Source of the DNA: an uncultured virus (IMG/VR IMGVR_UViG_3300033150_001293)
Lineage: Duplodnaviria > Heunggongvirae > Uroviricota > Caudoviricetes
DNA: 20,000 bases
Virus record (IMG/VR): IMGVR_UViG_3300033150_001293
Direction: 5' to 3' (one strand)
This document shows, piece by piece, positions 1,866-20,000 of the stretch; position 1 is the first letter of the stretch, and every line of letters starts with the position of its first letter. The notes under the pieces were generated by a model that searched no databases, was not told the origin of the DNA, and saw only the letters and a program-made list of their open reading frames with translations. Position numbers and translations under genes: made by a program.

Positions 1866-1869
1866 CGGC

Positions 1870-2744: not shown

Positions 2745-2759
2745 GAAGTGTGTTGCGAG
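2745..2759 (+). repeat. Core motif copy (GAAGTGTGTTGCGAG) abutting the tail tube stop codon
   Basis: Exact 15-mer shared with 14828, 14957 and 15551. The minus strand reads TAG-CTCGCAACACACTTC. Confidence 0.85.
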
Positions 2760-3164: not shown

Positions 3165-3221
3165 CGCGTATTCCTCCACTTGCGGAAAGGTAGTCAGAAC
3201 CGTTCCGCCTTTCCCTCTCGC

Positions 3222-3788: not shown

Positions 3789-3834
3789 ATCACACACCTC
3801 CTCGAATAGGGTTGTTTAACCAGTCCGGCCCCTG

Positions 3835-5057: not shown

Positions 5058-5407
5058 TGATTTCTCTCTCTCTCTTCGCAGTCCACCCGCCATAGCCTTC
5101 CAACCCCGGCCTGGTCCACCGGCTTTCCGATCTGCTCAAGCACCCTGCCGGCCCACTCGGTCGGGACCACGACCACCAAGTGGTCGCCGTGCGAACTCCC
5201 TGGGTCGTCCGCGAAATACACTACGTGCGTGATCACGTACTCCCGCTGGTCCAGCACGAGCGAGTCGTAGCTGGTCCGCGGCTGGATAAAGCACCGCTTC
5301 TGCGTTGTCCCCGAATATGTGAACGCCTGGCTGCCCGCCGAGCCGACCGACGCCGAGCGCGGCTGGTGCGTCACAAGATGCCGGCTGCATTGCGATCGGA
5401 TACTCAT
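5054..5407 (-). CDS. Head closure / head-tail adaptor protein (SPP1 gp16-like)
   Basis: 117 aa with RCFIQP, THVVYF..DP...GD.L and D.AG....W.VDC.E patterns. ATGA overlap with the connector gene. Confidence 0.75.
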   Translation of the reverse strand: MSIRSQCSRHLVTHQPRSASVGSAGSQAFTYSGTTQKRCFIQPRTSYDSLVLDQREYVITHVVYFADDPGSSHGDHLVVVVPTEWAGRVLEQIGKPVDQAGVGRLWRVDCEERERNQ

Positions 5408-6135: not shown

Positions 6136-6425
6136 CCCCCACCCCCTCTTGGACGCATCAGCAGCAGCTCCCTCTGGCTCTGCCGGATCTCGCGCATGTC
6201 GTCCTTGATCTGAGACAGCATCTCGTTCAAGTGGCTCTTCTGCGCCTCCAGCTCGATCTGGATGCCGCGGCTCCTTGACGACGCCGAGTACGACTGCTGC
6301 GCCGCCCCGAACATCAACCCGGATAGCAGGACCATCAGCCACGTCAGCATCTTGAGCCAGCGCTTCGTGCTGTCGTGGATCTCGTCGCAGCGGGCGACGG
6401 TCTGGTAGAGCGATTGGTCAGGCAT
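6132..6425 (-). CDS. Small membrane protein with one TM helix and a coiled coil (holin/XhlA-like possible)
   Basis: Hydrophobic WLKMLTWLMVLLSGLMFGAA followed by heptad-like LNEMLSQIKDDMREIRQ. Confidence 0.55.
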   Translation of the reverse strand: MPDQSLYQTVARCDEIHDSTKRWLKMLTWLMVLLSGLMFGAAQQSYSASSRSRGIQIELEAQKSHLNEMLSQIKDDMREIRQSQRELLLMRPRGGGG

Positions 6426-6444
6426 CGCGTGTTGTCCTTTCGTG

Positions 6445-6843
6445 TCAAGTCAGTCCGACATCGCCGTTCATCGTTCGCATAAAGTGAACGCACCCCTGCT
6501 CGCACGTCTTGATCGCGTCCGCCGGATCGGTCTCGGAGCTGTCCACCACCGTCACCTCGGCTTCGTACGGCCCGAACAGATCGTCCGTGTCCCCCTGGGC
6601 CAGCCGCACCGTGGCGCTCGCGTGCGTCGCCGATCCGTCGCCCAGCTCCTCGACCGTCACCACCGAGCCGTCGGCCGTCGCCGCCACGGAGTCCAGATCC
6701 AGGTCCGGCGTGCTGGCGCCCCTGCCGATTTTGCACCGCACCACGTCCGACGCCTGGAGTTGCAGGTAGCCCCCGCTCGCCGTCTTCAGCGTGACGGTGA
6801 AGTCGACCGTTCGCCCCGCCTCTGCGACAATTTCAAACGCCAT
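6445..6843 (-). CDS. BppU-N-like beta-sandwich virion protein
   Basis: G.T..FTVTLK..SG..L.L....V...I...VRL...DT..L.G.Y..EV.V.D pattern. AGGAG RBS. Confidence 0.55.
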   Translation of the reverse strand: MAFEIVAEAGRTVDFTVTLKTASGGYLQLQASDVVRCKIGRGASTPDLDLDSVAATADGSVVTVEELGDGSATHASATVRLAQGDTDDLFGPYEAEVTVVDSSETDPADAIKTCEQGCVHFMRTMNGDVGLT

Positions 6844-6844
6844 G

Positions 6845-7042
6845 TCAGGACTCCTTTCGGGTCCAGGTCGTGTCGCCCGGCCCCGCCCTCGCCACCGTCG
6901 TGTCGCCCGGCCCCGCCCGGCTCACGTCCACGCTGCCGGGGAACGACTGGGCCAGCGAACTCACTATATAGGCCGCGACGTGGCCGTGCGCTAGCACCGT
7001 CGGAAGCTGCCCGCCGTATCCACTTGTCTGGTCGATGATCAT
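6845..7042 (-). CDS. Small hypothetical protein with a 10-aa tandem repeat (RAGPGDTT x2)
   Basis: ATG 7042 lies just after the upstream stop and fills the gap exactly. 30-bp-period repeat at about 6867-6918. Confidence 0.55.
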   Translation of the reverse strand: MIIDQTSGYGGQLPTVLAHGHVAAYIVSSLAQSFPGSVDVSRAGPGDTTVARAGPGDTTWTRKES

Positions 7043-7047
7043 TTCAC

Positions 7048-7881
7048 TTACGTCGGTTGCGTCACTATCACTATGAGCCGGTCGTCCGCGCCGCTGGCCG
7101 TGAACCGCAGCACCACCGTGTCCCCGTTCATGTCCGCCGCCGCCAAATTGATCTTGTAGACGCCGCTGCCTATCTCGACTGCCGAGTTGGCGCACGACGC
7201 GAAGGCCGCCCCGTCCAACGATCTCTGGGCCGTCACCGTGAGCCCGGTCTTCGCGCTGACGTGATCCGTCGCGTCCACCATGATGAAGGCGAAGTTGTCT
7301 AGCGCGACGTTCTTCGCCGGCTTCGCAGGCAGGTCCGCCGCAATGGCGTCCAGGATCTCGTCCAGCCGGCCGCCGTCGATCCAGTCCGTCAGTGCTCCGG
7401 CCCTCGCGGCGGTCCACACGGACGCCAGCGCCGCGTTGTCCGTCCCCCGCATCGCGTCCGACGCAACAAGTAGTGGCGTGGCGACATCGAAGAGCTTTAT
7501 GACCGCCGCCGCCAAGTAGCCGGCGGAAGTTTCGGTCAGCGCCGTGCCAAGTATTGACGCGGCATCGGCACGAATGTCGCCGGTTTCCTCCGGAAATAAC
7601 ACCACCAAGTAAGTCAGCGCGTTGGTATTCGTGACCGTGACTTTGAGGACCACGGCGTCGTAGTTCATCTCGGCCGCCGTCAAGTCGATGTACCCAATGC
7701 CGCTGCTGCCAATCTCCACTGCCTCATTGTCGGCATCCCCAAACGCCGCGCCATCCTTGGACAGCTTGCTGTCCTGCCCGGCCCAGCTCGTCACCAACTC
7801 CCCCACACTGTCGCGAATAGCGAAGTAATGGCGGTACGCCGTGTTTTTCTTCGGGACAGGTCTTGCGTCCGAACTCGCCAT
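7048..7881 (-). CDS. Putative virion accessory protein with an internally duplicated domain
   Basis: ATG 7881 with AGGAG RBS. N-terminal SKDGAAF..A.NEAVEIGSSG..YIDLTAAEMN.DAVVL matches C-terminal SLDGAAF....NSAVEIGSGVYKINLAAADMN.DTVVL. Confidence 0.65.
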   Translation of the reverse strand: MASSDARPVPKKNTAYRHYFAIRDSVGELVTSWAGQDSKLSKDGAAFGDADNEAVEIGSSGIGYIDLTAAEMNYDAVVLKVTVTNTNALTYLVVLFPEETGDIRADAASILGTALTETSAGYLAAAVIKLFDVATPLLVASDAMRGTDNAALASVWTAARAGALTDWIDGGRLDEILDAIAADLPAKPAKNVALDNFAFIMVDATDHVSAKTGLTVTAQRSLDGAAFASCANSAVEIGSGVYKINLAAADMNGDTVVLRFTASGADDRLIVIVTQPT

Positions 7882-7882
7882 G

Positions 7883-10012
7883 TCAACACTCCTGTACTCC
7901 GATTCGGCCGGAACTTGCTTGGACAAACCCGCCGGGCATTATGTCCGGATCGGCCCACCAATACATCGTCCCCGAGGCGTTCGCACCACGCACGCGCAAC
8001 CAGACCTCCTTGTCGTAGTCGGCCGTGTACGTGACGTTGACCGTCTGCCAATCGGTGGTGTCGGCAATCTGGTCGTCGTCGAGCTTGGAGGCGGCGGAGT
8101 CCCACGGCTCGTTCGGGTCGATGATCTGGACTCGCGGATGCTCGGACATGCCGCTTGGCGTCTGCGAGCATTTGATGTAGACGGGGATCATGACGGCCTG
8201 GCCGGCCTTGAGGCGGATCGCCATCACGTCGACCCAGACGGGATGATCGGCCGACTCGAACGTGTACTTATGGCACCAGTCGAGCGCGATGGGGGGATCG
8301 GCGGGAACGCTGGCTTCTTCGCTCGTGCAGTAGCCGCCGCTCGTCCAGCCGAGGATGCGTCCTTTCTGGAGCACGTCGCTGCCGTCAACCGGGTCGTAGA
8401 TGAATTGCCCTACGTCGTCTTTGTAGTTCAGCAGGTATTCGTAGTTTTGCGTGGCAGAACGGAGGGAGCAGCCGTAGCCGATGAGCGGACCGACTTGGCG
8501 GAGGTCGTACGTGTTTTCGCTGAAAATAGTGGCCTGGAGTCGATGGGAGCCGGAGCGGATGCCGTAGGTGCACCCGGTGATCGTCGTGACCGTGTGACCC
8601 GAGCCGTAGTCGATGCCGTAGCCGCACCCGGCGATTGTCGTGGCCGTGCAGCCCGAGCCGTAGTCGATGCCGTAGCCGCACCCGGCGATTGTCGTGGCCG
8701 TGCAGCCCGAGCCGTAATAGATGCCGTAGGTGCACCCGGTGATCGTCGTGACCGTGTGACCCGAGCCGTAGATGATGCCGTAGCCGCACCCGGTGATCGT
8801 CGTGGCCGTGCAGCCCGAGCCGTAGTCGATGCCGTAGGTGCACCCGGCGATTGTCGTGGCCGTGCAGCCCGAGCCGTGGATGATGCCGTCGCCGCACCCG
8901 GTGATTACGGCTATCTCGACATTGCCGCCATATTGCACCCCGCGCCCATAAAACGTCGTCCCCGATCCGGCCGTGTTGGTGATTTCCCCAAACGTGCCGC
9001 CGTGCGTGTCGCCATTCACAAACAGCACCACTGCCTGACCGCTACTCGTGCCTGCCGACCGAATCGACACGTTGCGGGACGAAAGCACCACGAGGGCAAA
9101 CGGATATTGCGCCGAGTCAACCGCCTCGCCGAGCACCAGCGTCCCTGCGTTGATCGTATCGACCGTCGTCCGCTGCTGATCGTAATCCGCCGGGGCCACG
9201 TCGCACAGCACGACGCGATCGCCGGCCGTCCAGTTGTCGGCGGTTACGTCGTCGACCACCTTGACGGTGGCCGATCCTGACGAGTAGCCCGAGTACATCG
9301 TCAGGTTGCCGCTGCCGGTGGCGCTCGGGATGACGATTTGCGCGTCGCCATTTTGCAACGCGAGCTTGCACGTGTTGCCGCTCACCGCACGGACGTAGTA
9401 GATTTCGTTCTCAGAAAAGCCCGTCGGCAACGTCCCGCTCGACAAGAGCCTGACCGCCGTACCGGCAGCCGGCGGTGCCTCCCCCCAGTCGATCACGCCG
9501 GTCGTCGTGTTGACGTTCGTCGCCTGGTCGGTCGGCCCATAGTCCTCACCGTAGGTGCGAACATAGGTCTTGGTCGGCTCGGCACAGATCAGCTTGCAGT
9601 CGAGGTTCGTCGCCTGGATCTGCGCCGTACCCTGAAGGTCGATGACGGCCTTGTTGCTGTACTGGAGAGCCGTGTCGGTGTCCCAGTCGCCGTCGCTGTT
9701 GGCGAGCAGCCGACCACGGTTGGTATCCAGCGTGCCTTGCAGTGTCGCTCCGGTTTGCAGCTTGAGGTGCCCATCGTCGCCGTTGGCCCAGTAGAGCATT
9801 CCGGGCGTGGCGCCGCCGCGAATGATGTTCGTACCGGCCAATCCCGTCCACGCCGACTGGTCCACGTCCATCTTGACCGAGACGCCGGCCGAGATGACAA
9901 ACGTGTCGCCATCCGCGGGCACGAAATTGCCCGGTGCGCCGCCGTCCGAATCGCTCCAGACGTTCGCCGCATCGCTCCAGTCGCCGGATGCTACTGCATA
10001 GCGGGTTGACAT
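7883..10012 (-). CDS. Fibre/spike-like protein: G8-like N-terminus, beta-helix repeats, probable carbohydrate-binding C-terminal domain
   Basis: N-terminal SGDWSD..VW...GG....VP.DGD..VI..G. 18-aa GC.YGI.YGSG....TI. repeats. C-terminal TTDWQTVNVTYT......V.LRV......GT.YW jelly-roll-like pattern. Start could be 10024. Confidence 0.7.
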   Translation of the reverse strand: MSTRYAVASGDWSDAANVWSDSDGGAPGNFVPADGDTFVISAGVSVKMDVDQSAWTGLAGTNIIRGGATPGMLYWANGDDGHLKLQTGATLQGTLDTNRGRLLANSDGDWDTDTALQYSNKAVIDLQGTAQIQATNLDCKLICAEPTKTYVRTYGEDYGPTDQATNVNTTTGVIDWGEAPPAAGTAVRLLSSGTLPTGFSENEIYYVRAVSGNTCKLALQNGDAQIVIPSATGSGNLTMYSGYSSGSATVKVVDDVTADNWTAGDRVVLCDVAPADYDQQRTTVDTINAGTLVLGEAVDSAQYPFALVVLSSRNVSIRSAGTSSGQAVVLFVNGDTHGGTFGEITNTAGSGTTFYGRGVQYGGNVEIAVITGCGDGIIHGSGCTATTIAGCTYGIDYGSGCTATTITGCGYGIIYGSGHTVTTITGCTYGIYYGSGCTATTIAGCGYGIDYGSGCTATTIAGCGYGIDYGSGHTVTTITGCTYGIRSGSHRLQATIFSENTYDLRQVGPLIGYGCSLRSATQNYEYLLNYKDDVGQFIYDPVDGSDVLQKGRILGWTSGGYCTSEEASVPADPPIALDWCHKYTFESADHPVWVDVMAIRLKAGQAVMIPVYIKCSQTPSGMSEHPRVQIIDPNEPWDSAASKLDDDQIADTTDWQTVNVTYTADYDKEVWLRVRGANASGTMYWWADPDIMPGGFVQASSGRIGVQEC
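8558..8899 (-). repeat. 54-bp tandem repeat, about 6.3 units (18 aa each)
   Basis: Units GCGDGIIHGSGCTATTIA / GCTYGIDYGSGCTATTIT / GCGYGIIYGSGHTVTTIT / GCTYGIYYGSGCTATTIA / GCGYGIDYGSGCTATTIA / GCGYGIDYGSGHTVTTIT / GCTYGI, near-identical at DNA level. Confidence 0.95.
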
Positions 10013-10095
10013 CTGTTCAATCAATCATCATTTAGTCCTCGCTTCTCAAGGATCAGGACAGCCCGTGGCGCTCTCACCACGAGGCGTGTGAGTTG

Positions 10096-10620
10096 CTATC
10101 CCTCGTAGAGGATGCGGCCGCTGGTCAATCCGGTGATCGTCGTCACGGTGCGCCTAGAGTCATTGCATTCGCGCATTTGCTTGGCGTCGTACCGCAACCG
10201 ATAGCCGCATCGCTGACAATAGAGGGTAAACCTACCACGTCGTCTCCGCTCGCGCAGCGACTCGCCGCAAACTGAACATAATGGCGGGCGCCAGTTGATC
10301 GTCATGACATCGCGATCTATGTGAAATGCAACACTGCTCTTACCATCACCTACAACCTTGATGTTGTAGCGGTAAAACTCTGGTAGCTTCCGTAGTTTCA
10401 GTGGAGTCTGCTGTGCTCTCGTCACGAGATGTAGTGGCTTCGGTAGCCTCAGCATACCCGGATGCTGCACCAGGATTTGTACGTCTCGATCGAACTCTGC
10501 GCCTGCCTTGGTAATGCAGTGCAAAACCACTATTTGTGTCGCCTGAGCAATAGAACCTTCCCATACTTCCGGGTCTTCCCATCGCCCATGTTTTACCGAT
10601 GAAACCATACGCTCGTTCAT
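10096..10620 (-). CDS. Hypothetical protein, lower GC, G8-like start and CxxC-x16-CxxC Zn ribbon
   Basis: ATGA overlap with the upstream ORF. SVKHGRWEDPEVWEG; CSVC...CQRC. Line 10321-10380 is 26/60 GC against 41/60 at 11461-11520. Confidence 0.6.
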   Translation of the reverse strand: MNERMVSSVKHGRWEDPEVWEGSIAQATQIVVLHCITKAGAEFDRDVQILVQHPGMLRLPKPLHLVTRAQQTPLKLRKLPEFYRYNIKVVGDGKSSVAFHIDRDVMTINWRPPLCSVCGESLRERRRRGRFTLYCQRCGYRLRYDAKQMRECNDSRRTVTTITGLTSGRILYEG

Positions 10621-10886
10621 AAGGTTTCTCCTGATACTTCTGGAAACATCCGTACAATCTCAACAAGCTTGCCGAAGAGCGGATACCGTCGCATTACCTC
10701 GTCACGGACAGTTGGCGGCATCCGCGGCCAGTCCGCAACCGCGTCGGCCACGGCGGGAATCGCCAGATAATCCAAGATGCGGTCCGCTGCCTGCTTCGTG
10801 GAGACGTGCCGGCCCCGCGATATTCGCAGGTCGATCGTCCGGCAACGACGGCGTTCCCTTACAACTGCTCTCCGATTACTTCCCAT
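10617..10886 (-). CDS. Hypothetical protein (start uncertain)
   Basis: 3' part of the 10617..11360 ORF. Nearest ATG is 10886 (MGSNRRAVV...TKQAADRILDYLAIPAVADAVADWPRM). Confidence 0.5.
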   Translation of the reverse strand: MGSNRRAVVRERRRCRTIDLRISRGRHVSTKQAADRILDYLAIPAVADAVADWPRMPPTVRDEVMRRYPLFGKLVEIVRMFPEVSGETL

Positions 10887-11056
10887 TCGTCCTGGTCCTC
10901 CAGCCGTGCCAGGTGCGCAGCCTCCAGTTTGTCCGCTGCAACTTGCACGTCCTTGGGCTTCGACAGCCAATGAAACGTCATCCGCTCGCCGTTGGAGAGC
11001 AGACACGCAGCGTTGTAGCCGTCGCACGATTGCCAGTGGTCGAGGATAGTCGCCAT
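10859..11056 (-). CDS. Small hypothetical protein
   Basis: 65 aa, ATG with GGAG upstream, packs tightly with neighbours. Confidence 0.6.
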   Translation of the reverse strand: MATILDHWQSCDGYNAACLLSNGERMTFHWLSKPKDVQVAADKLEAAHLARLEDQDEWEVIGEQL

Positions 11057-11059
11057 AGT

Positions 11060-11212
11060 TTACTTCACTCCGGCCCGGCCGGTCTTCTTCGTCGCGTAGC
11101 CCCGCCCGCTGCCGCCGCACTTCGGACACGGTATCTTGCCGCCCTTGGCCTTCTTGCTCGGCACTACGCCGTCGCCGTGGCAGTGTCGGCACTTCGCATT
11201 CTTGTCTCGCAT
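11060..11212 (-). CDS. Mini DnaJ-type zinc-ribbon protein
   Basis: MRDKNAKCRHCHGDG...CPKCGGSG has two CxxCxGxG motifs. Overlaps the end of the glycosyltransferase gene. Confidence 0.65.
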   Translation of the reverse strand: MRDKNAKCRHCHGDGVVPSKKAKGGKIPCPKCGGSGRGYATKKTGRAGVK

Positions 11213-12144
11213 AGTCGCACCAACTCCCTCGCGCGATGCGTGTACGTGTGATTGGACAGCACCCATTCGCGGGCCCGTTTGCCCATCTGTTTGCGGTCTT
11301 CCGCAGACGTGCGCAGCGGCGCCTCTCCGACGATTGCCGCCAACTGTCGAGCGTCCCCATACGTCAGGTATGTTGGCGATTCCGCCGGATCACGCGGCAG
11401 TCCCGGCGACCAACGCCGCACGTGGCACGCCCCCATCCCGAGCACGAGCCAAAACTTGTCGCTCCAATAGCCCGGCAAATCAGAACGCGCCCCGCAGTCC
11501 ACCACCACGGCCGCCTCGCTCGCCAGCTCCGGCAGCCTCTCCGGCGGCACGAACGGCACGTACTCGACGCCACCGACGTGCCCGTAGTCCCCCTCCTGGA
11601 CCGCCCAGCCGACCCTCAGCCCGGCGGCCACCAGGGCTGCCACGTCCTCCCTCCGCTGTCTCCAGCGGGTCGTGCCGAGCACCAGGGCGTCCCACCGCGG
11701 CGGCTCCCGGTGCTCGCACTCGCCGATCCAGTGCGGGCAGCCCTGGTCGAACCACTCCGCGTTTACCCCAAGCCCCCGGTACTCGTCGAGCAACGAGCGC
11801 TCCTTCACCAGGGCCAGGTCGCACGACTTCAGGCCGCGCAGCAAGGCCGTCTCGGCCATTCGCTGGCCGTCCCACCCGAAGAGCAGTCGCTGCTCCGCCA
11901 GCGGTCCGTCCTGGCGCGCGATCAGGTCAAACATCCATCCGACCCGAAAACACCCGCTCGGGCCGACGTGGTTCTGGAGCCACTTTGGTTCCCAGACCGA
12001 CACGTCGGCCCACCGTTCCGCGGCGGTCACCTCATCCCCGAACATCGCGCGGCGCACCTCGTGGCCCGTCCGCTCCAGCGCGGCGGCCACCCATGCGTAT
12101 TTGTCCCAGCGCAGGTGATGCCCGGCAATAACGGCAATTCTCAC
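11164..12144 (-). CDS. Glycosyltransferase, GT-B / CgeB-like (Glyco_trans_1_2-type C-terminus)
   Basis: MRIAVI N-terminal strand; WDALVLG...RR..V..L; Y.SDKFW.VLGMGA; R.QMG.RAREWVL.NHTY.HRA.EL. Confidence 0.85.
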   Translation of the reverse strand: MRIAVIAGHHLRWDKYAWVAAALERTGHEVRRAMFGDEVTAAERWADVSVWEPKWLQNHVGPSGCFRVGWMFDLIARQDGPLAEQRLLFGWDGQRMAETALLRGLKSCDLALVKERSLLDEYRGLGVNAEWFDQGCPHWIGECEHREPPRWDALVLGTTRWRQRREDVAALVAAGLRVGWAVQEGDYGHVGGVEYVPFVPPERLPELASEAAVVVDCGARSDLPGYWSDKFWLVLGMGACHVRRWSPGLPRDPAESPTYLTYGDARQLAAIVGEAPLRTSAEDRKQMGKRAREWVLSNHTYTHRARELVRLCETRMRSADTATATA

Positions 12145-12164
12145 GATTACCTCGCTGCGGGTGT

Positions 12165-12860
12165 TTACGCTTCAGCCGCCTCCATCTCCTCCAGGCCGCG
12201 GCGGCGGCGGTACTCCGGCCAGAGCCCCTTGTTGAACCACTCCATCTCCTCGCGGGTTCTGGGGAGCGTCCGGCTCCCGCCAACCCCGCCCACGGCAACT
12301 ACCGCCTGCGACCACTCGGGGATAACCTTCGCCACGTCCTCGTCCGAGCAGGTGAGCAGGGACTTCCAGTCCTGGACCACACGGGCGCAGTGCACGATGC
12401 GGTCCTCCTCGTCCTCGTCGGGTTGCCGGATCACGTACGACTGCACGGCCCGCCGCATGTGCTCCAGCCACGTCGCCACCTGGATCGCCGTCAGGTGTAC
12501 CTCCTTGTCGCGGATCGGCCGCACTTCCGTCGCAAACACGTCGCGGATCGGCGAGGACTTGATCAGCGCGCCAATCTTGTCGAGCATCGGCTCGTTCTCT
12601 TTCCAGCCGAGCGGGTCGGTCAGCCGCCCCATCCGCGTGTTGACGCTCAGAATTACGTGCTGCCCCGGCACCGTCGGCATGTGCGACGCGAGCTTGCCGA
12701 GGTGTCCGCGGGGGCCGGGCGTCAGCTTCGGCGACTCGTGCCGGCTCCGCAGCATCCGCTGTGGACCATAGTCGTTCGGGCACGGCGGGAAGTTGTACCG
12801 CTCGCCCTTGGGGAGGTCGATCTCGATCACAAGGTCGTCGGATTTCCAGTGCTTGGCCAT
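12165..12860 (-). CDS. Hypothetical phage protein downstream of the capsid gene
   Basis: 231 aa, ATG with purine-rich RBS, codon style matches the structural genes. Confidence 0.75.
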   Translation of the reverse strand: MAKHWKSDDLVIEIDLPKGERYNFPPCPNDYGPQRMLRSRHESPKLTPGPRGHLGKLASHMPTVPGQHVILSVNTRMGRLTDPLGWKENEPMLDKIGALIKSSPIRDVFATEVRPIRDKEVHLTAIQVATWLEHMRRAVQSYVIRQPDEDEEDRIVHCARVVQDWKSLLTCSDEDVAKVIPEWSQAVVAVGGVGGSRTLPRTREEMEWFNKGLWPEYRRRRGLEEMEAAEA

Positions 12861-12897
12861 TCGACTTTTCCTTTCCCTCTTGCAGTATGCCGGAGCG

Positions 12898-12938
12898 AAA
12901 AAACACCCGACGCCCGACTACGCCGTCGAGCGCCGGGC
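12898..12938 (-). terminator. Intrinsic terminator after the major capsid gene
   Basis: Minus strand GCCCGGCGCTCGAC-GGCGTA-GTCGGGCGTCGGGT-GTTTTTT. Confidence 0.8.
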
Positions 12939-13009
12939 TCGCCGAGGGAAAGGCGGCTCCGGAGAAACACCTTCCCCTTGGGTAGTGTCCCTGTCAGGAC
13001 TTCGGCAGG

Positions 13010-14683
13010 TTACGCCTCGATGCTCTGATCGAGGTCCGTGATCTTCATGCACGCTCCGGGCAGCGAAAGCTGGCCGCCGAACCGGGCCCGAAGGAGCAGC
13101 ATCTTCTCGTTCAGACGGAAGAGGGTGTAGCCTTCGGACGTTTCGCGGAACTGGCTGCCAAGCCGCCGGATGAGCTGGTACTCGTTCAGGGCGCAAAACG
13201 CGGCCGAGCCGTTGCTGATATGCTCCTCGATTGACACGGCGCGGTCCATGAGCGTGTAGTTCTCGTGGTCCATGCCGGGCTTGAGTACGCGCCGGGCGTC
13301 CGAGGATCCGACCGGGACCTGGCACATGCGCTTGTACATCAGGTCGCTCGTGACGAACCGGCAGTTCCGGCCCGACGCTTGCCGGCGCGCCTTCGTCAGC
13401 CCGAAGATCAGCTCCTCGATGTCGTTGACCGTGATCGCACCAGCCGTGCCGTTGACGGAGCTGGTCGAGTTGACCCCGGACTTGGTGAAGATGCCCTCCG
13501 GCTCGGTCGTGCCGTCGCCGTTCGCAATCTGGTTGTCCAGCCACTCCCGCAGCCGCTCGCCCATCTGCTGGGGCAGAATGCGGCCGAAATTGACGGGGGT
13601 GTCGCTAAGCCAGTCCATGCCCAGCTGGATTCCCACCGCACACGTGAAGATGGTCGTGTCGAGGTTGCCGATCAGGCCGGTGCAGTCGAACAGCGTAATG
13701 TTCGACCCCTCCGCCGTGTTCGACGTCACGGTGATCGCCCCAGCCAGGTACACCCCGTCGACGGAGACCCCGGCAGGCAGGTCCATGATCGACACGTGCG
13801 GCACCAGCTCGCCGTTCAGGATGGGGTCCATGAAGAGCTGGTCGTCGAACGCGCGGGGCACGGCGTACGATCCGCCGCTGGTCGTGTCGCCCAGCAGCGA
13901 CGCCTTGACGTTCCCGGGCAGGTTGGCCAGCCGCTGGCTCCCCTTCCAGCAGGGCACCAACGTGGTCGGCTCGCCGCAGACCCACTCGGCCTTGTCGAGG
14001 CAGTAGTTGACGAGCTGCCGCTCGTGCTCTGAGAGCTCCGGCCTGTCCGTCAGCCTGCCCCCGCCGAGGATGTTCCACTTCGCCCACGCCCCGACCATCG
14101 CCGCCTCGGCGTCGGAGATGTCGTACATCGGGCGGCAGTGGTTCTGGGCGACGTCCGCGCCCTTCGCCCCGTACATCACGGGCTGGCCGGCCATCGGGTG
14201 CCGCCTGTCCTGGCCGCCGGAGGTGAGGCGCTCGGGATATCTCGCCATCTGCTTCGTGGTCGAGTACCCGCCCACCTCGATCGGACTCTTCATCCTGGGC
14301 AGGGGCGTGCTCCCGGCCGCCTCCGCGAACATCTTGTCCGCGGCGGTCGGCTCGCCGGGCGTCTCGTCTTCGGACGGCGCCGGCTTCGTCTCGGCCGCCG
14401 TCTCCATCTTCTCGATCCGGTCGCTCAGCTTGGAGAGCGTCTGGTTGATTGGCCCCATCGCCTGGCCGACGGCTTTGCCGATCAGGCTGGCAGCGGCCTC
14501 CAAGTCGGCGTCGGGCTCCGGCGCCTCCTCGACCGCCTCGCCCCGGCCCATCTTCTGGATCTGGTCCCACGTCAGGTCGCCCTTGGCGTGGGCCTCGACG
14601 ACGGCGGCCTCGAACTGCTTGTCGTCCGCGTCCGCCGGCACGCCGAGATGCTCGATGGCGTAAGCCTTGAGCGTGTCGTGCAT
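13010..14683 (-). CDS. Major capsid protein, HK97 fold, with long N-terminal scaffold region
   Basis: KASL....SGGSYAVP..F, D.WL.D...N....L...MGE......LD.QI.NGDGT.EP.GI and R..G near the C-terminus. Directly follows the protease gene. Confidence 0.93.
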   Translation of the reverse strand: MHDTLKAYAIEHLGVPADADDKQFEAAVVEAHAKGDLTWDQIQKMGRGEAVEEAPEPDADLEAAASLIGKAVGQAMGPINQTLSKLSDRIEKMETAAETKPAPSEDETPGEPTAADKMFAEAAGSTPLPRMKSPIEVGGYSTTKQMARYPERLTSGGQDRRHPMAGQPVMYGAKGADVAQNHCRPMYDISDAEAAMVGAWAKWNILGGGRLTDRPELSEHERQLVNYCLDKAEWVCGEPTTLVPCWKGSQRLANLPGNVKASLLGDTTSGGSYAVPRAFDDQLFMDPILNGELVPHVSIMDLPAGVSVDGVYLAGAITVTSNTAEGSNITLFDCTGLIGNLDTTIFTCAVGIQLGMDWLSDTPVNFGRILPQQMGERLREWLDNQIANGDGTTEPEGIFTKSGVNSTSSVNGTAGAITVNDIEELIFGLTKARRQASGRNCRFVTSDLMYKRMCQVPVGSSDARRVLKPGMDHENYTLMDRAVSIEEHISNGSAAFCALNEYQLIRRLGSQFRETSEGYTLFRLNEKMLLLRARFGGQLSLPGACMKITDLDQSIEA

Positions 14684-14712
14684 CGTGTGTCCCCTTTCGA
14701 TTAGGGTGAAAG

Positions 14713-16383
14713 TTAGCGGCGGACCATGCCGCCGAGCTTGCGCAGGGCCAAAAGCAGCCCCCTACCTTCACCGCCGTTTCCCTCGGATGACTTGTCCTCG
14801 ACCGTCTTTCCGCTATGACGGGAAGTTGAAGTGTGTTGCGAGTAGTTTGGGTCCATAGTGTAGATAAGGGACCAGCGGCTTGCGGCTCTGTTTTGGCTGC
14901 CTCGACGCCTATCCAGTGACTTGTCTTCGACCGTCTTTCCGCTATAACGGGAAGTTGAAGTGTGTTGCGAGTCTTCGTCCCCGGCCGATTTCAGCACCGC
15001 GTCTAGGTCGGACATGATGCTCCGGGCAAGCGACTTTGTCTCCCGATCTACGTCTCGTTTGCCGATGGCCTCCGCGTTGTCGCGGGCCTCCCGGATACGC
15101 CCCTCGTTGGCCTTGGACAGAGAGCGGCCCGACTTGAACTCGGCAGCCGTCTTTTCGCTATGATGGGAAGCTGAAGTTTGTTGCGAGGGCTGGTGCGCCG
15201 TCAGGTGCGACAGCACCCTCTCCAGATCCGCCCCGCCGAGCCCGCTTACTTGCCCGGCCCTCGCCTTGGCGTTGTTGACGCCGTTGATTGACGCCTTGCC
15301 GGCATTGGCGTGCCCCGGCGGGAAGTGGTGCGGCAGCGACAGGTCGCCGAATGTGCCGCCCCCGGCGTCCCAAGCATAGTGCTTGGCGATCTTGGCCTTC
15401 TCGGCGACAGAAAGATCGTCCCACTGTTTGTCGGTGAAGTCCGAGAGCGTCGGCTTTTTCCAGTCGCCCTCGACCGCTTCGCCGCCGCCATTGGGCGGGT
15501 TCGGCGGGACGGACTTTTCGGCGGCCGTCTTTTCGCTATGATGGGATATTGAAGTGTGTTGCGAGTCTAGGAGCGGGACGGGCTCGGGCAGCGGATCGCC
15601 ATCGACATCTGCCGCCGCGTCAGGGGCGGGCTCTGGTTCGGCCTTGGTTCCCTGCACCACCACCGGCCGCTCGTCAAACAGCTTGCCGGCCCAGCCCTTG
15701 ACCATCGGATGGGCCAGCTTGCCGCGGCTGAACGCCGTGAGAACGGCGTCGATCTCCGCCCCGCGATTTGACGCCACCGACACGGGCGACCGCTCCATCA
15801 CCTCGTAGCGGTGGATGTGGTAGCCGACGAACTCGCCGTCGCCGTTAAGCATCTCCTCCCATGCCGGGTCTTCCTCGTCCACGTTGTCGTCCGGCAGAAA
15901 ACCGTGGGACATGCGGCGGACCGCCCCGAACTCGATAAGCTGCGCCACGTCGCGGCCGAGGGCGTTGTTGATAATCGCCTCGCGGGTCCGCAGCCGCTTG
16001 CTGTTCTGCTCCAGTATCTTGACGAGCTTGCCGATAGGCTCCGTGTGGAGATGGTTCCAGAGCAACGGGCCCAAAAGATCCACCCTTGCTCCCTTGGGGT
16101 CTAGTATGTCGCCGTCCCGATCCTTGTCGCCCGTCGTGAGCGTCGTGTCGTAAATCAGCACCGCGCCGCTGGTATGGTCGTCCGCGGCCTTCTGCCGAGT
16201 CGCCTTTTCGACTATCGCGGAACTCTCGCAGTAGACCAGCTTGCCCTCTGCTTCCTTAACCGCCTCCGGATCGACGCCGGGCACGCCGCACAGGTACATC
16301 GACGCCCGACCGATCCCCCACCGGCCGCCTTTGCGGTCCGCTAGACGCCCTAGGATCGTCTCAGCCGCATGTTCTTGGGACAT
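14713..16383 (-). CDS. Prohead (capsid maturation) protease, HK97 family, with C-terminal accessory domains separated by repeat linkers
   Basis: DRDGDI.DPKG, PLLWNH..EPIGK, MSHGF and E.SPVSVASN.GA motifs. Later LPHH-containing domain and KSGRSLSKANE..I..A helix. ATG 16383 has a GGGAG RBS. Confidence 0.9.
   Translation of the reverse strand: MSQEHAAETILGRLADRKGGRWGIGRASMYLCGVPGVDPEAVKEAEGKLVYCESSAIVEKATRQKAADDHTSGAVLIYDTTLTTGDKDRDGDILDPKGARVDLLGPLLWNHLHTEPIGKLVKILEQNSKRLRTREAIINNALGRDVAQLIEFGAVRRMSHGFLPDDNVDEEDPAWEEMLNGDGEFVGYHIHRYEVMERSPVSVASNRGAEIDAVLTAFSRGKLAHPMVKGWAGKLFDERPVVVQGTKAEPEPAPDAAADVDGDPLPEPVPLLDSQHTSISHHSEKTAAEKSVPPNPPNGGGEAVEGDWKKPTLSDFTDKQWDDLSVAEKAKIAKHYAWDAGGGTFGDLSLPHHFPPGHANAGKASINGVNNAKARAGQVSGLGGADLERVLSHLTAHQPSQQTSASHHSEKTAAEFKSGRSLSKANEGRIREARDNAEAIGKRDVDRETKSLARSIMSDLDAVLKSAGDEDSQHTSTSRYSGKTVEDKSLDRRRGSQNRAASRWSLIYTMDPNYSQHTSTSRHSGKTVEDKSSEGNGGEGRGLLLALRKLGGMVRR
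14751..14842 (+). repeat. Dispersed repeat, full-length copy A (92 bp)
   Basis: Aligns end to end with 16924-17015 (10 substitutions and two 1-nt gaps by manual count). Confidence 0.95.
14853..14909 (+). repeat. 57-bp copy of 5417-5473 (3' end of head-tail connector gene)
   Basis: ccatagtgtagataagggaccagcggcttgcggctctgttttggctgcctcgacgcc vs ccatagtgtagataagggactagcagcttgcggctctgcttcggcagtctcgacgcc, 51/57 identical. Confidence 0.95.
14917..14972 (+). repeat. Dispersed repeat copy B (56 bp)
   Basis: tgacttgtcttcgaccgtctttccgctataacgggaagttgaagtgtgttgcgagt, 2 mismatches to copy A. Confidence 0.95.
15141..15187 (+). repeat. Dispersed repeat copy C
   Basis: cggcagccgtcttttcgctatgatgggaagctgaagtttgttgcgag. 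Confidence 0.9.
15512..15566 (+). repeat. Dispersed repeat copy D
   Basis: gacttttcggcggccgtcttttcgctatgatgggatattgaagtgtgttgcgagt. Confidence 0.9.
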
Positions 16384-16570
16384 ATTCGGCTCCCTGTTTG
16401 CTGTGCGCTTTCTGTGTTGCGAGTTTCCACGCTCCAAACGTGTTCCGCTTGGCCCGCTCCTCGGTCGCCCTGATCTCCTTGGTCCGGCAAGCCGGACACG
16501 GGCCCACGTCCGGCTTGTCGCCGACCACGACCACCCGCTCCCCCGATCCGCCGCACGCCCTGCACGTCAT
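16361..16570 (-). CDS. Mini zinc-ribbon protein (CxxCxGxG...CxxC)
   Basis: MTCRACGGSG...GPCPAC. Starts just after the terminator and overlaps the protease start. Confidence 0.6.
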   Translation of the reverse strand: MTCRACGGSGERVVVVGDKPDVGPCPACRTKEIRATEERAKRNTFGAWKLATQKAHSKQGAEYVPRTCG

Positions 16571-16581
16571 GATCGCCCCAC

Positions 16582-16629
16582 AAAAAAAGGCCCCGGTCGA
16601 CTAAGCCATACGGCTCGTCGAACGGGGCC
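16582..16629 (-). terminator. Intrinsic terminator between the small leader ORF and the structural genes
   Basis: Minus strand GGCCCCG-TTCGAC-GAGCC-GTAT-GGCTT-AGTCGAC-CGGGGCC-TTTTTTT. Confidence 0.85.
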
Positions 16630-16649
16630 CGGTGTTCCCGCTGCCCGTC

Positions 16650-16877
16650 CTATGTCGTTGTTCTGTCTGGTGTTACGGTCTGTTCGACCCTCGGCCGGAC
16701 AGTCACCACCTGACCGGCTTGCCACACGATCTCGATGCCCGTGCGGCCGAAAAAGTCCGTCCCCGCCGCCCCCAGTTGGGCGCGGAACGCCCTCTCCGCC
16801 TGCTCCAGCAGGCTCACTGTCTCGCCCGCCACAGTATTGATCTTCGTGCCGAAATCATAGCAGACAAGGCGGTCCAT
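16650..16877 (-). CDS. Small protein, DUF2292/YezD-like pattern, probably leaderless
   Basis: FFG.TGIEIVWQAGQVVTVR..VEQTV resembles the G.V.I..QDG.V..I...E pattern. ATG lies at the predicted +1. Confidence 0.6.
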   Translation of the reverse strand: MDRLVCYDFGTKINTVAGETVSLLEQAERAFRAQLGAAGTDFFGRTGIEIVWQAGQVVTVRPRVEQTVTPDRTTT

Positions 16878-16883
16878 GCCAAT

Positions 16884-16912
16884 AGTCTACCCGCGGGGCG
16901 GGGACGTGTCAA
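16884..16912 (-). promoter_or_regulatory. Sigma70-type promoter TTGACA-17 bp-TAGACT
   Basis: Perfect -35 (16907-16912), 17-bp spacer, -10 TAGACT (16884-16889). ATG follows after 6 nt. Confidence 0.85.
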
Positions 16913-16923
16913 CACGTTTCGGG

Positions 16924-17015
16924 AAAGCAGCCCCCGACTTTCACCACCGTTTCCCTCAGATGACTTGTCGGCAACCGTCTTTTTCGCTATGATGGGAAGT
17001 GAAGTGTGTTGTGAG
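16924..17015 (+). repeat. Dispersed repeat, full-length copy E (92 bp)
   Basis: Matches copy A. Overlaps the last codons of 16987..17721 in a different frame and the intergenic region upstream of the promoter. Confidence 0.95.
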
Positions 17016-17721
17016 CGAGGCGTTCGGCCGCCCTGGCCTCCTCTGGAGTGCATCCTCGCCACATTCCCTGCGATACGTACCACCAGGTGCCGGCTTCGGC
17101 CCGCCTTACCGTCCGAGATGCGGCCTGCCAGCCGCTCTTTCTTTCATACCAACGGACTATTTGGATCGTGCCCTCCCCGGCCTTCTGCGTGCTGTAGTTT
17201 CCGGAAATCTGAATACTGTATTCTCCGGTAATCTGTACGCTACAGCCCCCGGTAATCTGCACGCTACAGTCCTCGGAAATCTGTACGCTGCAATCCTCGG
17301 AAATCTGCACGCTACAGTCCCGTGCCTCCTGCTTGCTGTCTCTCCCGGCCGTCTGCGTGCTGCCATATCCGGTCTTCTGTATGATCCTGTCTCCGCCGGC
17401 CAGCTGAGCATTTGCGATATACTCTTCCTGAACGCAACAGTGATATTTCAGCCAATCCCTCAAGGCGGCTCGCGTCCTTGCCTCGTCGCGTGCCGGGTCA
17501 TGCCAGGCGGGTAGCAGCTTTTGGACGACGCGGAACACCCATGTCTCCGGATCGGTCGAGTAGTCCCCGTTTTTGGGCGTGATCTCCACCTTGAGAACGC
17601 TCGGACCACGGGCGCCATTGGCGTACAGGTTGTGCTCGTCGATGATGGCTTCATGGCTGTTGGTGGCACACGACCAAAGCACGGAGTTGCTCGTGAGTAC
17701 AAACGCCGCTGGAGTACACAT
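16987..17721 (-). CDS. Hypothetical phage protein with degenerate ice-nucleation-like octapeptide repeats
   Basis: AGGAG RBS. N-terminal MC....V....VLW....SHE.II...VEI.P domain, then TGYGSTQTAG..S.Q and 24-bp tandem units at about 17170-17380. Confidence 0.75.
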   Translation of the reverse strand: MCTPAAFVLTSNSVLWSCATNSHEAIIDEHNLYANGARGPSVLKVEITPKNGDYSTDPETWVFRVVQKLLPAWHDPARDEARTRAALRDWLKYHCCVQEEYIANAQLAGGDRIIQKTGYGSTQTAGRDSKQEARDCSVQISEDCSVQISEDCSVQITGGCSVQITGEYSIQISGNYSTQKAGEGTIQIVRWYERKSGWQAASRTVRRAEAGTWWYVSQGMWRGCTPEEARAAERLAHNTLHFPS

Positions 17722-18071: not shown

Positions 18072-18121
18072 CGCAATCTCCTAGGTTATCCGATTTGGAC
18101 CGATTCGACAAAATAGTCTTG

Positions 18122-18706
18122 CTACGTCCACCGAAGATACGGCACCATGCAGTTGTGCTGAGAAGTGTATTGCGAGAGCAGGACTTTCCATGGGATATGG
18201 TCCCGCACAAAAGAAACAGCCGTCGCGGCAGCCGATGGGACCACATGGCTTGCTGTGGAAACCACATAGTCTACTGTGCAAATTGCATGGCGCGTCGCCT
18301 TACCGTCAGTCGCCTCGGCCGCATGGATTGCCGCGTCAACTGCCAGATACGCTGCGCGCGCTGCATCATCTTCCCAATACGTTGCTCCCTTTGCTCTGTC
18401 GATTGCCTCCTTGACTTTGCCAATGGACGTGCCGCCTTGCAGCCACCGACGCATCATCTCGATAGCCTGTTTTGTCGGACGGCCCTTGTCGGCAGGCACA
18501 CAGGACAGGGCTAGCTCGGCACAATCGCACACGATGGCGATCATCCGGTTCTGATCGACACCACAACGCTCTGCGACCCACAGCATCCAGTCGGCGCGTT
18601 CGCATTGCTCCCACGCCTCTTGGGGGTCGCGGTTGCCGAACCAGTCGAGGGCCTGTTGGCAGGCACCCCATTCTTTCAGCAATTCGACGCAATCTGGATT
18701 GTTCAT
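18122..18706 (-). CDS. Imm5-like helical phage protein
   Basis: AC..AL.W...AW..C.RADWMLW; CDCAELAL......D..RP..AIE..RRW..G; Ala-rich AARAA..A..AA. Confidence 0.65.
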   Translation of the reverse strand: MNNPDCVELLKEWGACQQALDWFGNRDPQEAWEQCERADWMLWVAERCGVDQNRMIAIVCDCAELALSCVPADKGRPTKQAIEMMRRWLQGGTSIGKVKEAIDRAKGATYWEDDAARAAYLAVDAAIHAAEATDGKATRHAICTVDYVVSTASHVVPSAAATAVSFVRDHIPWKVLLSQYTSQHNCMVPYLRWT

Positions 18707-18721
18707 TATTGCATCCCCTGA

Positions 18722-19390
18722 CTAGCGAACCACACGATATTTGCTCAGGTCCAATGTTAGACCCTCAGCCAGCGTGCAGCGACGAAGGTCGAGGCAACCG
18801 CCAATCGACTCGGGTAGCGTCAAATCGGTAGGCAGTGCGCAATTGTTGAAGTAGAGTGAACTGCCTACTGATTTGGGTGGTGTCAGACCAGCAGGTAGCA
18901 CACAGTTGCTAAGGTCGAGCCAATTACCGATCGACTCGGGTAGCTTTAGCCCAGCAGGTAGCTTGCAACCGCTAAGGTCGAGCCAACCGCCTATCGACTT
19001 GGGTAACGCCACTCCGGCGGGTAGCAGGCAATAGCGAAGATTGAGCGAGCCATCCATCGACTCGGGTAGCTTCAAATTAGCGGATAGTATGTAGCCGCTA
19101 AAGTCAAGCGAGCCGCCTTTCTCTGACACCTGGGCGATACAGGCATTCAGCGCTTCTTCCCGCGTCGGGTATTTCGCCAGGATGGCTGACTTCAGCACGC
19201 TGGGATTCTCCCCAAGTGCGGCACGCACCGTGAGACTGGCGCCGTCGTCATCCTCGGTCCACTCCCATTCCCGGTACGTCTCCGGCTTGAGACCGAACGC
19301 CTTCACCGTACGCTCGTGATGCCGCAGGTCGGCGCAGAGCACTCGCGGGTATCGCTCGATCGTGACCACGCCGGATAAAAATTCGCACAT
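18722..19390 (-). CDS. Phage protein with 22-aa LRR-like repeats (LPESIGGxLDLSGC)
   Basis: ATG 19390 in a TAATG overlap. About 5.5 units of 66 bp at about 18760-19120. Confidence 0.8.
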   Translation of the reverse strand: MCEFLSGVVTIERYPRVLCADLRHHERTVKAFGLKPETYREWEWTEDDDGASLTVRAALGENPSVLKSAILAKYPTREEALNACIAQVSEKGGSLDFSGYILSANLKLPESMDGSLNLRYCLLPAGVALPKSIGGWLDLSGCKLPAGLKLPESIGNWLDLSNCVLPAGLTPPKSVGSSLYFNNCALPTDLTLPESIGGCLDLRRCTLAEGLTLDLSKYRVVR

Positions 19391-19602
19391 TATGTTGTCC
19401 CCCGTCTGCGAGTCACCAGATAGCGGAATCCTTCCCCGAACCACATTGTCGTGTCGTCGTCAAGTGTGGCTTCGAGATAGGATGAGCCTTCTGGGTACTG
19501 ACCGGGGAATAGAGACACCACGCTTTGACCGGTCACTAGCACGTCGCCAGTCTGGATTTCCAACCCGCCAACGTACAGCCGTTTTTGTGTTTCCGATTCC
19601 AT
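19390..19602 (-). CDS. Small hypothetical protein
   Basis: MESETQKRLYVGGLEIQTGDVLV... Start could be 19623. Confidence 0.55.
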   Translation of the reverse strand: MESETQKRLYVGGLEIQTGDVLVTGQSVVSLFPGQYPEGSSYLEATLDDDTTMWFGEGFRYLVTRRRGTT

Positions 19603-19670: not shown

Positions 19671-20000
19671 TCAGTTGGCGATCATCTCCTCGGCAGCGTC
19701 CTTAGCCAGCGACAGCGTTTGCATCAGATACTTGCGGTTGATGTCGGCGGCCTCCGCATGCTCTCGCGCATTGTGGCACGCCGCCTCGATCGACGGGCCG
19801 TAGCCAATGGCTTCCCAACGGCCGTGTTCCTCGTCGTAGCCCTGACAGGCCCCCCAAGACTGGCACACATGGACGCGGTAGCGGTCGTAGCACGCCGCCA
19901 CGATCGACGAGCCGCGGCCAATGACCTCCCGGCGGCCGTGTTCCTCATCGTAGCTCTGACAGATCCCCCAAGACTGGCACACATGGACGCGGTAGCGGTC
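19671..20000 (-). CDS. Hypothetical protein with 38-aa tandem duplication (partial, starts beyond right edge)
   Basis: Frame is open to 20000. DRYRVHVCQSWG.CQ.YDEEHGR.E.IG.G.SI.AAC occurs twice. Confidence 0.6.
   Translation of the reverse strand, partial: DRYRVHVCQSWGICQSYDEEHGRREVIGRGSSIVAACYDRYRVHVCQSWGACQGYDEEHGRWEAIGYGPSIEAACHNAREHAEAADINRKYLMQTLSLAKDAAEEMIAN
19777..20000. repeat. 114-bp-period tandem duplication
   Basis: 19777-19886 vs 19891-20000, 12 mismatches in 110 bp by manual count. Confidence 0.95.

Follow-up and report, generated by a model that had tools for sequence, protein, structure and literature searches.

The 20,000-nucleotide (nt) stretch of the uncultured virus IMGVR_UViG_3300033150_001293 (Caudoviricetes), hereafter the window, carries a family of short repeat units, two of which (A and B) lie inside the gene of a prohead protease-scaffold protein and enclose a piece that resembles the 3′ end of a head-tail adaptor gene. 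We propose, with a probability of about 0.5, that these 56-nt repeats are stand-alone cassettes similar to CRISPR RNAs (crRNAs), each consisting of a promoter, a handle and a guide. They would belong to a phage-borne and probably nuclease-dead Cas12f-type system, with the adaptor-derived piece as the guide of cassette A. If this is true, the phage lineage possesses a miniature CRISPR-like system of its own, which probably does not cut and which combines arrays with dozens of scattered one-guide cassettes, some of them in frame within the head protease-scaffold gene.

An adaptor-derived piece between two repeat units

The first-pass annotation had described this locus as a repeat-spacer-repeat unit, the spacer being a diverged copy of the head-tail connector (here adaptor) gene end. 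The flanking repeats are real, as the repeat search of the window lists a 56-nt pair (D4; A at 14788-14843 and B at 14917-14972) with an identity of 96%. Direct comparison reproduced the match of 14853-14909 to 5417-5473 at 51 of 57 positions, as well as its weaker extension to the last adaptor codon (14843-14852 against 5407-5416, 6/10), where the ATG of the next gene overlaps the adaptor gene end at 5407. In codon register, the piece agrees with the native adaptor end at 56 of 66 positions. When 14843-14916 served as a BLAST query and its locus in the window was masked, 5417-5473 was the sole match (89.5% identity, E value 7.8e-18), and the repeat search lists the adaptor copy independently (D6, 57/67). 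The last seven bases, 14910-14916 (TATCCAG), are not part of the adaptor copy.

In the adaptor frame the copy reads ASRQPKQSRKPLVPYLHYGPKL against the native ASRLPKQSRKLLVPYLHYGRKL, and in the protease frame it reads LDRRRGSQNRAASRWSLIYTMDPN, in agreement with the earlier translations. Likewise, six bases of the 57-nt core are changed, and four of these changes are indeed silent in the adaptor frame. Over all 66 nt, nine codons are changed, six of them synonymously and three nonsynonymously, compared to a synonymous share of about a quarter (a rough estimate, set against a small sample) that is expected if the drift came after capture. This synonymous excess suggests that the changes arose at a time when the sequence still belonged to an adaptor gene, namely in another phage. 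The adaptor match and the six synonymous codons uphold the connector as the donor, and the piece most likely derives from the adaptor gene of a related phage and not from this phage's own copy. A search for an external match closer than the native adaptor, recommended in the first-pass annotation, yielded none in INPHARED, and in IMG/VR an exact 20-mer of the spacer occurred only in the contig G001, which represents the same phage.

Immediately 3′ of the handle of unit A, the sequence becomes homologous to the adaptor, and this point corresponds to the repeat/spacer boundary in the arrays of G002, a contig described below. The insert between the units spans 73 nt (14844-14916) and thus departs from the usual spacer length of G002, where 29 of 43 spacers have 36-38 nt. 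Compared to the phage's own adaptor gene, the first 10 nt of the spacer mismatch at four positions, and the following 35 nt match at 33. The mismatches therefore cluster near the handle (4/10 against 6/57), in a post hoc comparison of small numbers.

Oriented repeat units in the window

All units share a 16-nt core (CTCGCAACACACTTCA), of which the window contains seven copies at no more than three mismatches, all on the − strand. The chance expectation is 0.14 copies, and none of 200 shuffled sequences reached seven. Read on the + strand, antisense to the structural genes, the units end in the 15-nt handle GAAGTGTGTTGCGAG or near variants (Table 1). Units A to D are located in frame inside the scaffold part of the protease-scaffold gene, with spacings of 129, 216 and 378 nt, each divisible by 3. 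By contrast, copy E (16961-17016) lies outside the protease frame and has acquired two compensating 1-nt indels, whereas copies F (2744-2759) and G (18161-18176) are both intergenic and have the core alone in common with the family. The frame break in E and the core-only copies F and G indicate a conservation at the DNA or RNA level, not at the level of a peptide.

The core abuts a stop codon at 2759/2760, as annotated before, but the identification of the corresponding open reading frame (ORF) as the tail tube gene was not confirmed, since it has no family match. Another earlier proposal, that the repeat carries along 3′ flanks of its former sites, gains support: unit E bears 37 nt copied from the scaffold 3′ end (16924-16960), and two copies in G002, at 46050 and 49743, have that flank as well. 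The repeat search of the window found no inverted arms at the units, so that the terminal inverted repeats with target-site duplication of a miniature inverted-repeat transposable element are not seen, and the unit junctions vary between sites. A candidate CCGTC...GACGG hairpin within the unit was dropped, as three of five copies inspected by eye break the stem without compensation.

Absence of the units from a syntenic relative

The 57-kb IMG/VR contig G003 is syntenic with positions 748-16919 of the window (14 BLAST blocks, 68-87% identity), and its capsid protein is 80% identical to that of the window. G003 has no core at two or fewer mismatches, and its protease-scaffold homologue is devoid of units. 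The alignment of the two sequences is interrupted exactly at the units. The A-spacer-B segment stands in place of 88 nt of G003, unit C adds about 30 nt in frame compared to G003, and unit F is located within an intergenic stretch of 75 nt that measures 14 nt in G003. At the site of unit D, G003 instead possesses a 230-nt CxxC...CxxC zinc-ribbon-like segment (L055:3050-3290), which marks the scaffold linker as a hot spot for different insertions. The absence of the units from G003, together with the breaks in the alignment, suggests that they are recent arrivals in variable linkers. Alignments further revealed short similarities between the promoter-side ends of the units and the G003 sequence at the insertion sites.

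CRISPR arrays that end in the same handle

G002, an IMG/VR contig of 61 kb, encodes a portal-MuF protein, a terminase, RecT, a helicase and many glycosyltransferases. It has in common with the window 260 nt at 86% identity, copies of a leucine-rich repeat (LRR)-like gene and the units themselves at 89-94% identity. We found 79 core matches in G002, compared to none for a reversed control pattern, and about 46 of them are organized in three arrays, which have unique spacers and repeat roughly every 73 nt. The array repeat has 36 nt (GTGACGACGGCTGAAATCnGAGAAGTGTGTTGCGAG), and its 3′ end is GAAGTGTGTTGCGAG. In its last 15-16 nt, the window repeat therefore agrees completely with this CRISPR repeat at the spacer-proximal end. 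Judged from its sequence, the window repeat does not appear to be a CRISPR repeat as such. Of the earlier idea of a spacer-like guide, the CRISPR-spacer position next to an identical 15-nt repeat end stands, but neither a full repeat nor a normal spacer length accompanies it.

One array spacer (G002:40035) matches window positions 6914-6933 at 19 of 20 nt with the same polarity as the guides of the window, and the RNAs of this spacer and of the adaptor piece would both be antisense to the matched gene, if transcribed. This was the one usable match of 154 distinct spacers to the sequences compared. The G002 arrays gave no match in INPHARED, and the G002 CRISPR repeat none in 185,579 species genomes. 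A two-core pattern matched the same genomes twice, in a gene of an Acidimicrobiales metagenome-assembled genome (a 60-nt tandem repeat) and in a Lachnospiraceae repeat. By estimate, chance alone would yield about 1,000 occurrences of a single 15-mer in such a collection, and both matches lie in tandem repeats; they may be due to chance, and we draw nothing from them. In the Acidimicrobiales genome (L049:9215-9440), four tandem 60-nt repeats start with the handle 15-mer, read in frame as SQHTS, and lie inside an ORF that by eye resembles an aminoacyl-tRNA synthetase; this 15-mer match may likewise be fortuitous.

Two further features of G002 are recorded here. At 49743-49818, an inverted core lies 45 nt behind a long-type unit, and pairing of the two 15-mers could yield a perfect stem of 15 bp. 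In addition, a 1048-codon ORF (3045-6191, −) contains both a portal and a Mu-F-like domain, together with a weak match to intein splicing.

A Cas12f-like effector family

Between two large arrays of G002, and on the same strand, lies the gene of a 427-residue protein, P0002. It has no match in Pfam or PHROGs, but a phmmer search against AsCas12f chains gave an E value of 2e-9, and the ESM Atlas placed it among TnpB/Cas12f clusters with template modelling (TM) scores of 0.7-0.76. The AlphaFold model of P0002 has a mean predicted local distance difference test (pLDDT) score of 87.3. A Foldseek search with this model returned AsCas12f as the top matches (E value 1e-19, TM 0.61-0.65), in addition to the solved dCas12f structure 9n9c (E value 9e-15). 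As modelled, P0002 has a Cas12f fold composed of WED, REC and RuvC domains.

The family comprises 49 protein clusters of about 410-480 residues. Among 29 metagenome loci recovered, handle-like matches at three or fewer mismatches occur in 16, and seven (L065, L066, L070, L071, L072, L077 and L084) contain same-strand arrays with at least three periodic repeats; many of the remaining loci are contigs of 1-3 kb. The repeats differ among loci, but their 3′ end is always ...GTG(T/A)TGCGAG. The neighbours are phage replication and recombination genes (ERF, AAA_24, ResIII helicase), and no cas1, cas2 or cas4 was found among the 27 ORFs scanned at these loci.

The RuvC-I aspartate column holds an aspartate in only 19 of 33 sequences, whereas E372 is kept in 30. 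All ORFs end about 10-20 residues past a conserved GMxEWRP motif; by comparison, AsCas12f continues for 64 residues that contain the zinc ribbon and RuvC-III. P0002 does not have a complete RuvC triad (D, E, D), and effectors of its type are probably nuclease-dead, as far as the sequences tell.

A second ORF of about 105 codons, encoding a zinc-ribbon protein (LDCEICGEP...RPRCRKNGCERLCG), overlaps the effector stop in the −1 frame in G002 (L044:3959-4279, +) and at loci L064-L088. In five loci the overlap is a TGATG stop/start junction with a run of A residues just upstream, and the ORF also overlaps the scaffold RNA region described below. It has no significant match to a Pfam family or a solved chain, and no RuvC-III-like motif was seen by eye. 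The overlap may reflect a split gene, translational coupling or programmed frameshifting.

Moreover, a degenerate repeat or handle is located about 35-60 nt upstream of the effector start in L065, L066, L077, L081, L084 and L087. As such a handle stands just 5′ of the start, the 5′ end of the effector gene would take the place of its "spacer", and the arrangement may serve autoregulation.

A candidate tracr-like RNA and promoter-like boxes

The effector loci also contain a candidate scaffold RNA resembling a trans-activating CRISPR RNA (tracrRNA). In 10 of 12 loci, the first repeat ends at a distance of 219-220 nt from a conserved hairpin (GCGAGnGG...CCnCTCGC). RNAalifold keeps this hairpin, in which one pair covaries (CG in six sequences and AU in five), and pairs the conserved CUCGCA with the UGCGAG of the handle in 10-12 of 12 sequences. 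The latter pairing is invariant and hence represents complementarity, not covariation. P0002 is accompanied by same-strand arrays on both sides and by a predicted tracr-like RNA with an anti-repeat. Rfam gave no match in the window or in G002 at 38-48 kb.

In total, G002 and the window contain 84 handles, 46 in array repeats and 38 solitary (about 30 of the solitary ones in G002). We defined a −10 box as TANNNT with at least four of six identities to TATAAT, ending 7-13 nt upstream of the handle on the handle strand. Such a box precedes 20 of the 38 solitary handles, compared to 1.9% of random positions (n = 20,000). A mirrored control gave 0 of 38, on which grounds a promoter on the gene (core) strand was rejected. 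Several boxes are perfect TGnTATAAT, and several read TGGTATAAT or TGCTATAAT. Two layouts recur: TTGTCN-16/17-TATGAY-8-handle in the long type, and TTGCTR-17-TGGTACCAT-13-handle in class 2b. In either class, the repeat reaches as far as a complete promoter would. In a promoter scan of the window units, only unit E passed.

The proposed guide cassettes and alternative explanations

In the arrangement that we propose, each cassette, read on the + strand, would start with a sigma-70-like promoter, followed 7-13 nt later by the 15-nt handle GAAGUGUGUUGCGAG, which represents the spacer-proximal repeat end and is predicted to pair with CUCGCA of the scaffold RNA. The downstream sequence would serve as the guide, in most cases a neighbouring gene in antisense orientation. 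The guide of cassette A would comprise the last 22 adaptor codons of a related phage, in antisense. The adaptor piece would most likely have travelled with a cassette that formerly sat directly after the adaptor stop codon of a relative; this cassette and its downstream 67 nt would then have landed beside cassette B via recombination between cassettes, which gives rise to the repeat-spacer-repeat appearance. Unit F, right after a stop codon, shows that units can occupy such a place, and this route of transfer is the simplest. The effector would bind under RNA guidance without cutting, as a roadblock or for silencing, against relatives with a matching adaptor end. In Cas12-type effectors the handle-proximal bases constitute the seed, and the four mismatches within the handle-proximal 10 nt suggest that the phage's own adaptor gene is probably spared. 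We infer from these comparisons that the cassettes are transcribed, that the effector is present in this phage and loaded with their RNAs, what its target is, and by which route the adaptor piece arrived.

Several observations weigh against this proposal. The effector gene and the full arrays are not in the window, and the link to them rests on G002, with which the window has limited DNA in common. Only 15-16 nt of the 36-nt repeat are common to both, and the 5′ 18 nt of that repeat have no match in the window. The "spacer" is 73 nt long instead of 36-38 nt, and neither INPHARED nor IMG/VR offers a closer donor for it. With four mismatches to the own adaptor gene in its first 10 nt, the guide may have no target at all, and seven guide-target pairs revealed no consistent target-adjacent motif. 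As for the promoters, the boxes of units A and B (TATGAC and TATAAC) are devoid of the conserved final T and fail the promoter criteria, 18 of the 38 solitary handles are without a −10 box, and so are the solitary handles of locus L071. Finally, given the overlapping zinc-ribbon ORF, the "truncated" effector may not be the whole story.

The strongest competing explanation, which we regard as possible though the less probable one, is an inert recombination scar. Here the A-insert-B segment would result from a one-off recombination or template switch between unit copies in co-infecting relatives, with the adaptor piece as a passenger that is tolerated because the 129-nt addition keeps the scaffold frame; the dispersed units may keep a role of their own. 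Unit E and the G002 copies at 46050 and 49743 similarly drag flanks from earlier sites, and the 96% identity of A and B suggests a recent duplication. The insert has twice the length of an array spacer, no donor or target was found in the searches above, and the scan of 27 ORFs at effector loci revealed no adaptation genes. The short similarities between the promoter-side unit ends and the insertion sites of the relative also agree with a scar. However, the junction coincides exactly with the boundary between repeat and spacer in the related arrays, and the piece has the same polarity as the one array spacer with a match in this phage. Moreover, the mismatches to the own gene cluster near the handle, which random decay does not predict, with the reservation made above for this test.

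It is also conceivable, albeit improbable, that the cassettes are self-propagating guide-RNA genes, each a promoter-handle unit of about 45-60 nt with a guide against the adjoining sequence. The guides would then match the "empty" allele of related phages, as one G002 guide does in the unit-free G003 at 22 of 22 nt, and an R-loop or roadblock formed by the Cas12f-like effector during co-infection would stimulate the recombination that copies the unit to the relative. This would amount to TnpB-style homing reduced to a guide gene acting in trans, and the adaptor spacer would be left over from a unit that relocated together with its former guide.

Similarly unlikely is an operator or promoter module, in which a regulator or sigma-like factor of the phage binds the 15-mer as DNA and the arrays merely reuse it. 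Oriented "stoperators" of Cluster A mycobacteriophages provide a parallel, as the site is asymmetric, strictly oriented relative to transcription (seven of seven window copies on one strand) and adjoins −10 boxes. Nevertheless, the same 15-mer end is the repeat 3′ end throughout the effector family and is complementary to a conserved scaffold segment, which points to a role as RNA.

We consider it rather implausible that the units act as RNA decoys similar to RNA anti-CRISPRs (Racrs), in which case handle-only RNAs would titrate the Cas12f-like effector or scaffold RNA of a competing phage or host and the downstream sequence would be irrelevant. Solitary phage repeat units are a described anti-CRISPR strategy (PMC11656645; PMC10651486), and decoys would agree both with the number of copies that bring −10 boxes of their own and with the lack of the effector in the window. 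Yet G002 holds effector, long arrays and solitary units together, and the units keep the 15-nt repeat end only, whereas Racrs mimic the whole repeat with its Cas-binding part.

A functional peptide of the protease-scaffold (SQHTS(T)SxHSxKTxxE, for cleavage or docking), with the DNA similarity as a by-product, would account for the four in-frame copies at spacings of 129, 216 and 378 nt and for one G002 ORF that begins with the same peptide, but it is close to refuted and was rejected, since the relative G003, with its 80%-identical capsid protein, is without all four copies, copy E keeps the DNA with its frame broken by two indels, copies F and G are intergenic and the same 15-mer occurs in non-coding CRISPR repeats.

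Relation to known systems

The proposed cassettes resemble type II-C CRISPR repeats of Neisseria and Campylobacter, which possess an internal promoter with the −10 box just upstream of each guide. In both, the crRNA would start near the guide, and no processing of a long precursor would be needed. The type II-C promoter is present in every repeat of a Cas9 array, whereas here it is found in solitary type V-like units, and the array repeats have none. Rickettsia palindromic elements are short selfish repeats that reside in frame in coding genes and are tolerated as peptide. Different from these, the units have neither a palindrome nor terminal inverted repeats, and their end is common with a CRISPR repeat.

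Mini-arrays and solitary repeat units borne by viruses have been reported (Medvedeva et al. 2019; Shmakov et al. 2023, 10.1101/2023.03.03.530964). They share with the present locus a repeat-spacer-repeat structure in a virus genome, without cas genes beside it and with a spacer from the gene of a related virus; the match of the piece to the own adaptor (57/67) and its six of nine synonymous codons conform to the last feature. Inter-virus competition or regulation has been put forward as their use. Known mini-arrays, as described there, have the full repeat of the host and a normal spacer, compared to 15-16 nt of the repeat and a 73-nt insert in the window. In addition, each unit here seems to bring its own promoter, units lie in frame in an essential structural gene, and the system is apparently encoded by phages.

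C-terminally truncated, nuclease-dead Cas12f proteins, some of them beside CRISPR arrays, have recently been described in bacteria (Nature 2026, PMC13472631). P0002 resembles the dCas12f and TldR proteins of this and a further report (PMC13622181) in its small Cas12f/TnpB fold, an ORF that ends before RuvC-III and the arrays or guides nearby, and by analogy it is expected to bind DNA without cutting. The dCas12f clades described there are bacterial (Bacteroidota, with sigma-E, or near efflux genes), whereas the P0002 family is found among phage replication genes. TldRs, in the same sources, have one fixed guide, in contrast to the long arrays, dispersed single-guide cassettes and overlapping zinc-ribbon ORF of the P0002 family. 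A limited keyword search of the literature, in which reports may be missed, gave no account of this phage family or of dispersed promoter-handle cassettes.

From its sequence, the locus is best filed as a virus-borne CRISPR-like guide element, a variant without the full repeat or the normal spacer length. If the cassette proposal is true, it extends the role of mini-arrays in inter-virus conflict, the range of dead Cas12f/TnpB regulators and the ways of gaining spacers without Cas1-Cas2. It would also represent a very compact natural design for guide expression, made of a promoter, a 15-nt handle and a guide. The adaptor piece provides a concrete test object, as a single putative guide of recognisable foreign origin.

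Genes of the window and further observations

The window is a high-GC phage structural module with its genes on the − strand (Table 1). In the protease-scaffold ORF, the C-terminal 330 residues are scaffold-like and conserved in G003 up to the common end ...GGMVRR*. A nuclease, reverse transcriptase or recombinase gene, for which the first-pass annotation had advised a search, was not found in the window.

Table 1. Positions of the repeat units, the adaptor-derived piece and assigned genes in the window
Feature	Position	Strand	Description
"Spacer", putative guide of unit A	14843-14916	+	14843-14909, antisense copy of adaptor 3′ end
Native counterpart of the spacer	5407-5473		Last 22 codons of adaptor gene 5404-6342 (−)
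Unit A	14788-14842	+	−35-like TTGTCC 14792-14797, 16 nt, −10-like TATGAC 14814-14819
Handle of unit A	14828-14842	+	GAAGTGTGTTGCGAG; 8 nt after −10-like box; same as 3′ end of G002 CRISPR repeat
Unit B	14917-14971	+	TTGTCT 14921-14926, 16 nt, TATAAC 14943-14948, 8 nt, handle 14957-14971
Unit C	15133-15187	+	−10-like TATGAT, 8 nt, handle 15173-15187 (GAAGTTTGTTGCGAG)
Unit D	15511-15565	+	TATGAT, 8 nt, handle 15551-15565
Unit E	16924-17015	+	TTGTCG-17-TATGAT, handle 17001-17015 with one mismatch
Unit F	2727-2759	+	TGGTATATA, then handle 2745-2759; right after stop of ORF 2760-3179
Unit G (class 2b)	18117-18176	+	TTGCTA-18-CACCAT, 13 nt, handle 18162-18176 (GAAGTGTATTGCGAG)
Tape measure	3-1865	−	PF10145, E value 8e-47
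Head closure-like gene	5054-5407	−	Family match
Head-tail adaptor (connector)	5404-6342	−	PHROG 442 "head-tail adaptor", E value 1e-18
Glycosyltransferase	11164-12144		Family match
Major capsid protein	13010-14683	−	PF05065, E value 4e-20
Prohead protease (S78) with scaffold-like part	14713-16437	−	574-codon ORF; S78 protease at residues 100-238; 14713-16383 holds protease and scaffold-like parts with units A-D

Three tandem repeats were seen elsewhere in the window. A 54-nt (18-codon) unit occurs in 6-7 copies at 8493-8978, within a 713-codon ORF (7883-10024) that has no family match; 24-nt repeats at 17175-17390 lie in the ORF 16987-17721; and a 114-nt repeat occupies the window end (19773-20000). 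The LRR-like ORF 18722-19444 has relatives that are repeated many times in G002 at 27-31 kb.

Glycosyltransferase and methyltransferase genes are located in or beside the structural module, at 10096-12860 in the window and at 44-60 kb in G002, which has at least eight such genes. Their presence suggests a glycosylation of the virion. Finally, a 75-codon ORF (16650-16877) has a promoter-like site (TTGACA-17-TAGACT, 16884-16912, −) that ends 6 nt 5′ of its ATG. This suggests that the transcript is leaderless, and the same arrangement of site and ATG is also found in G003 (L055:1551-1590).

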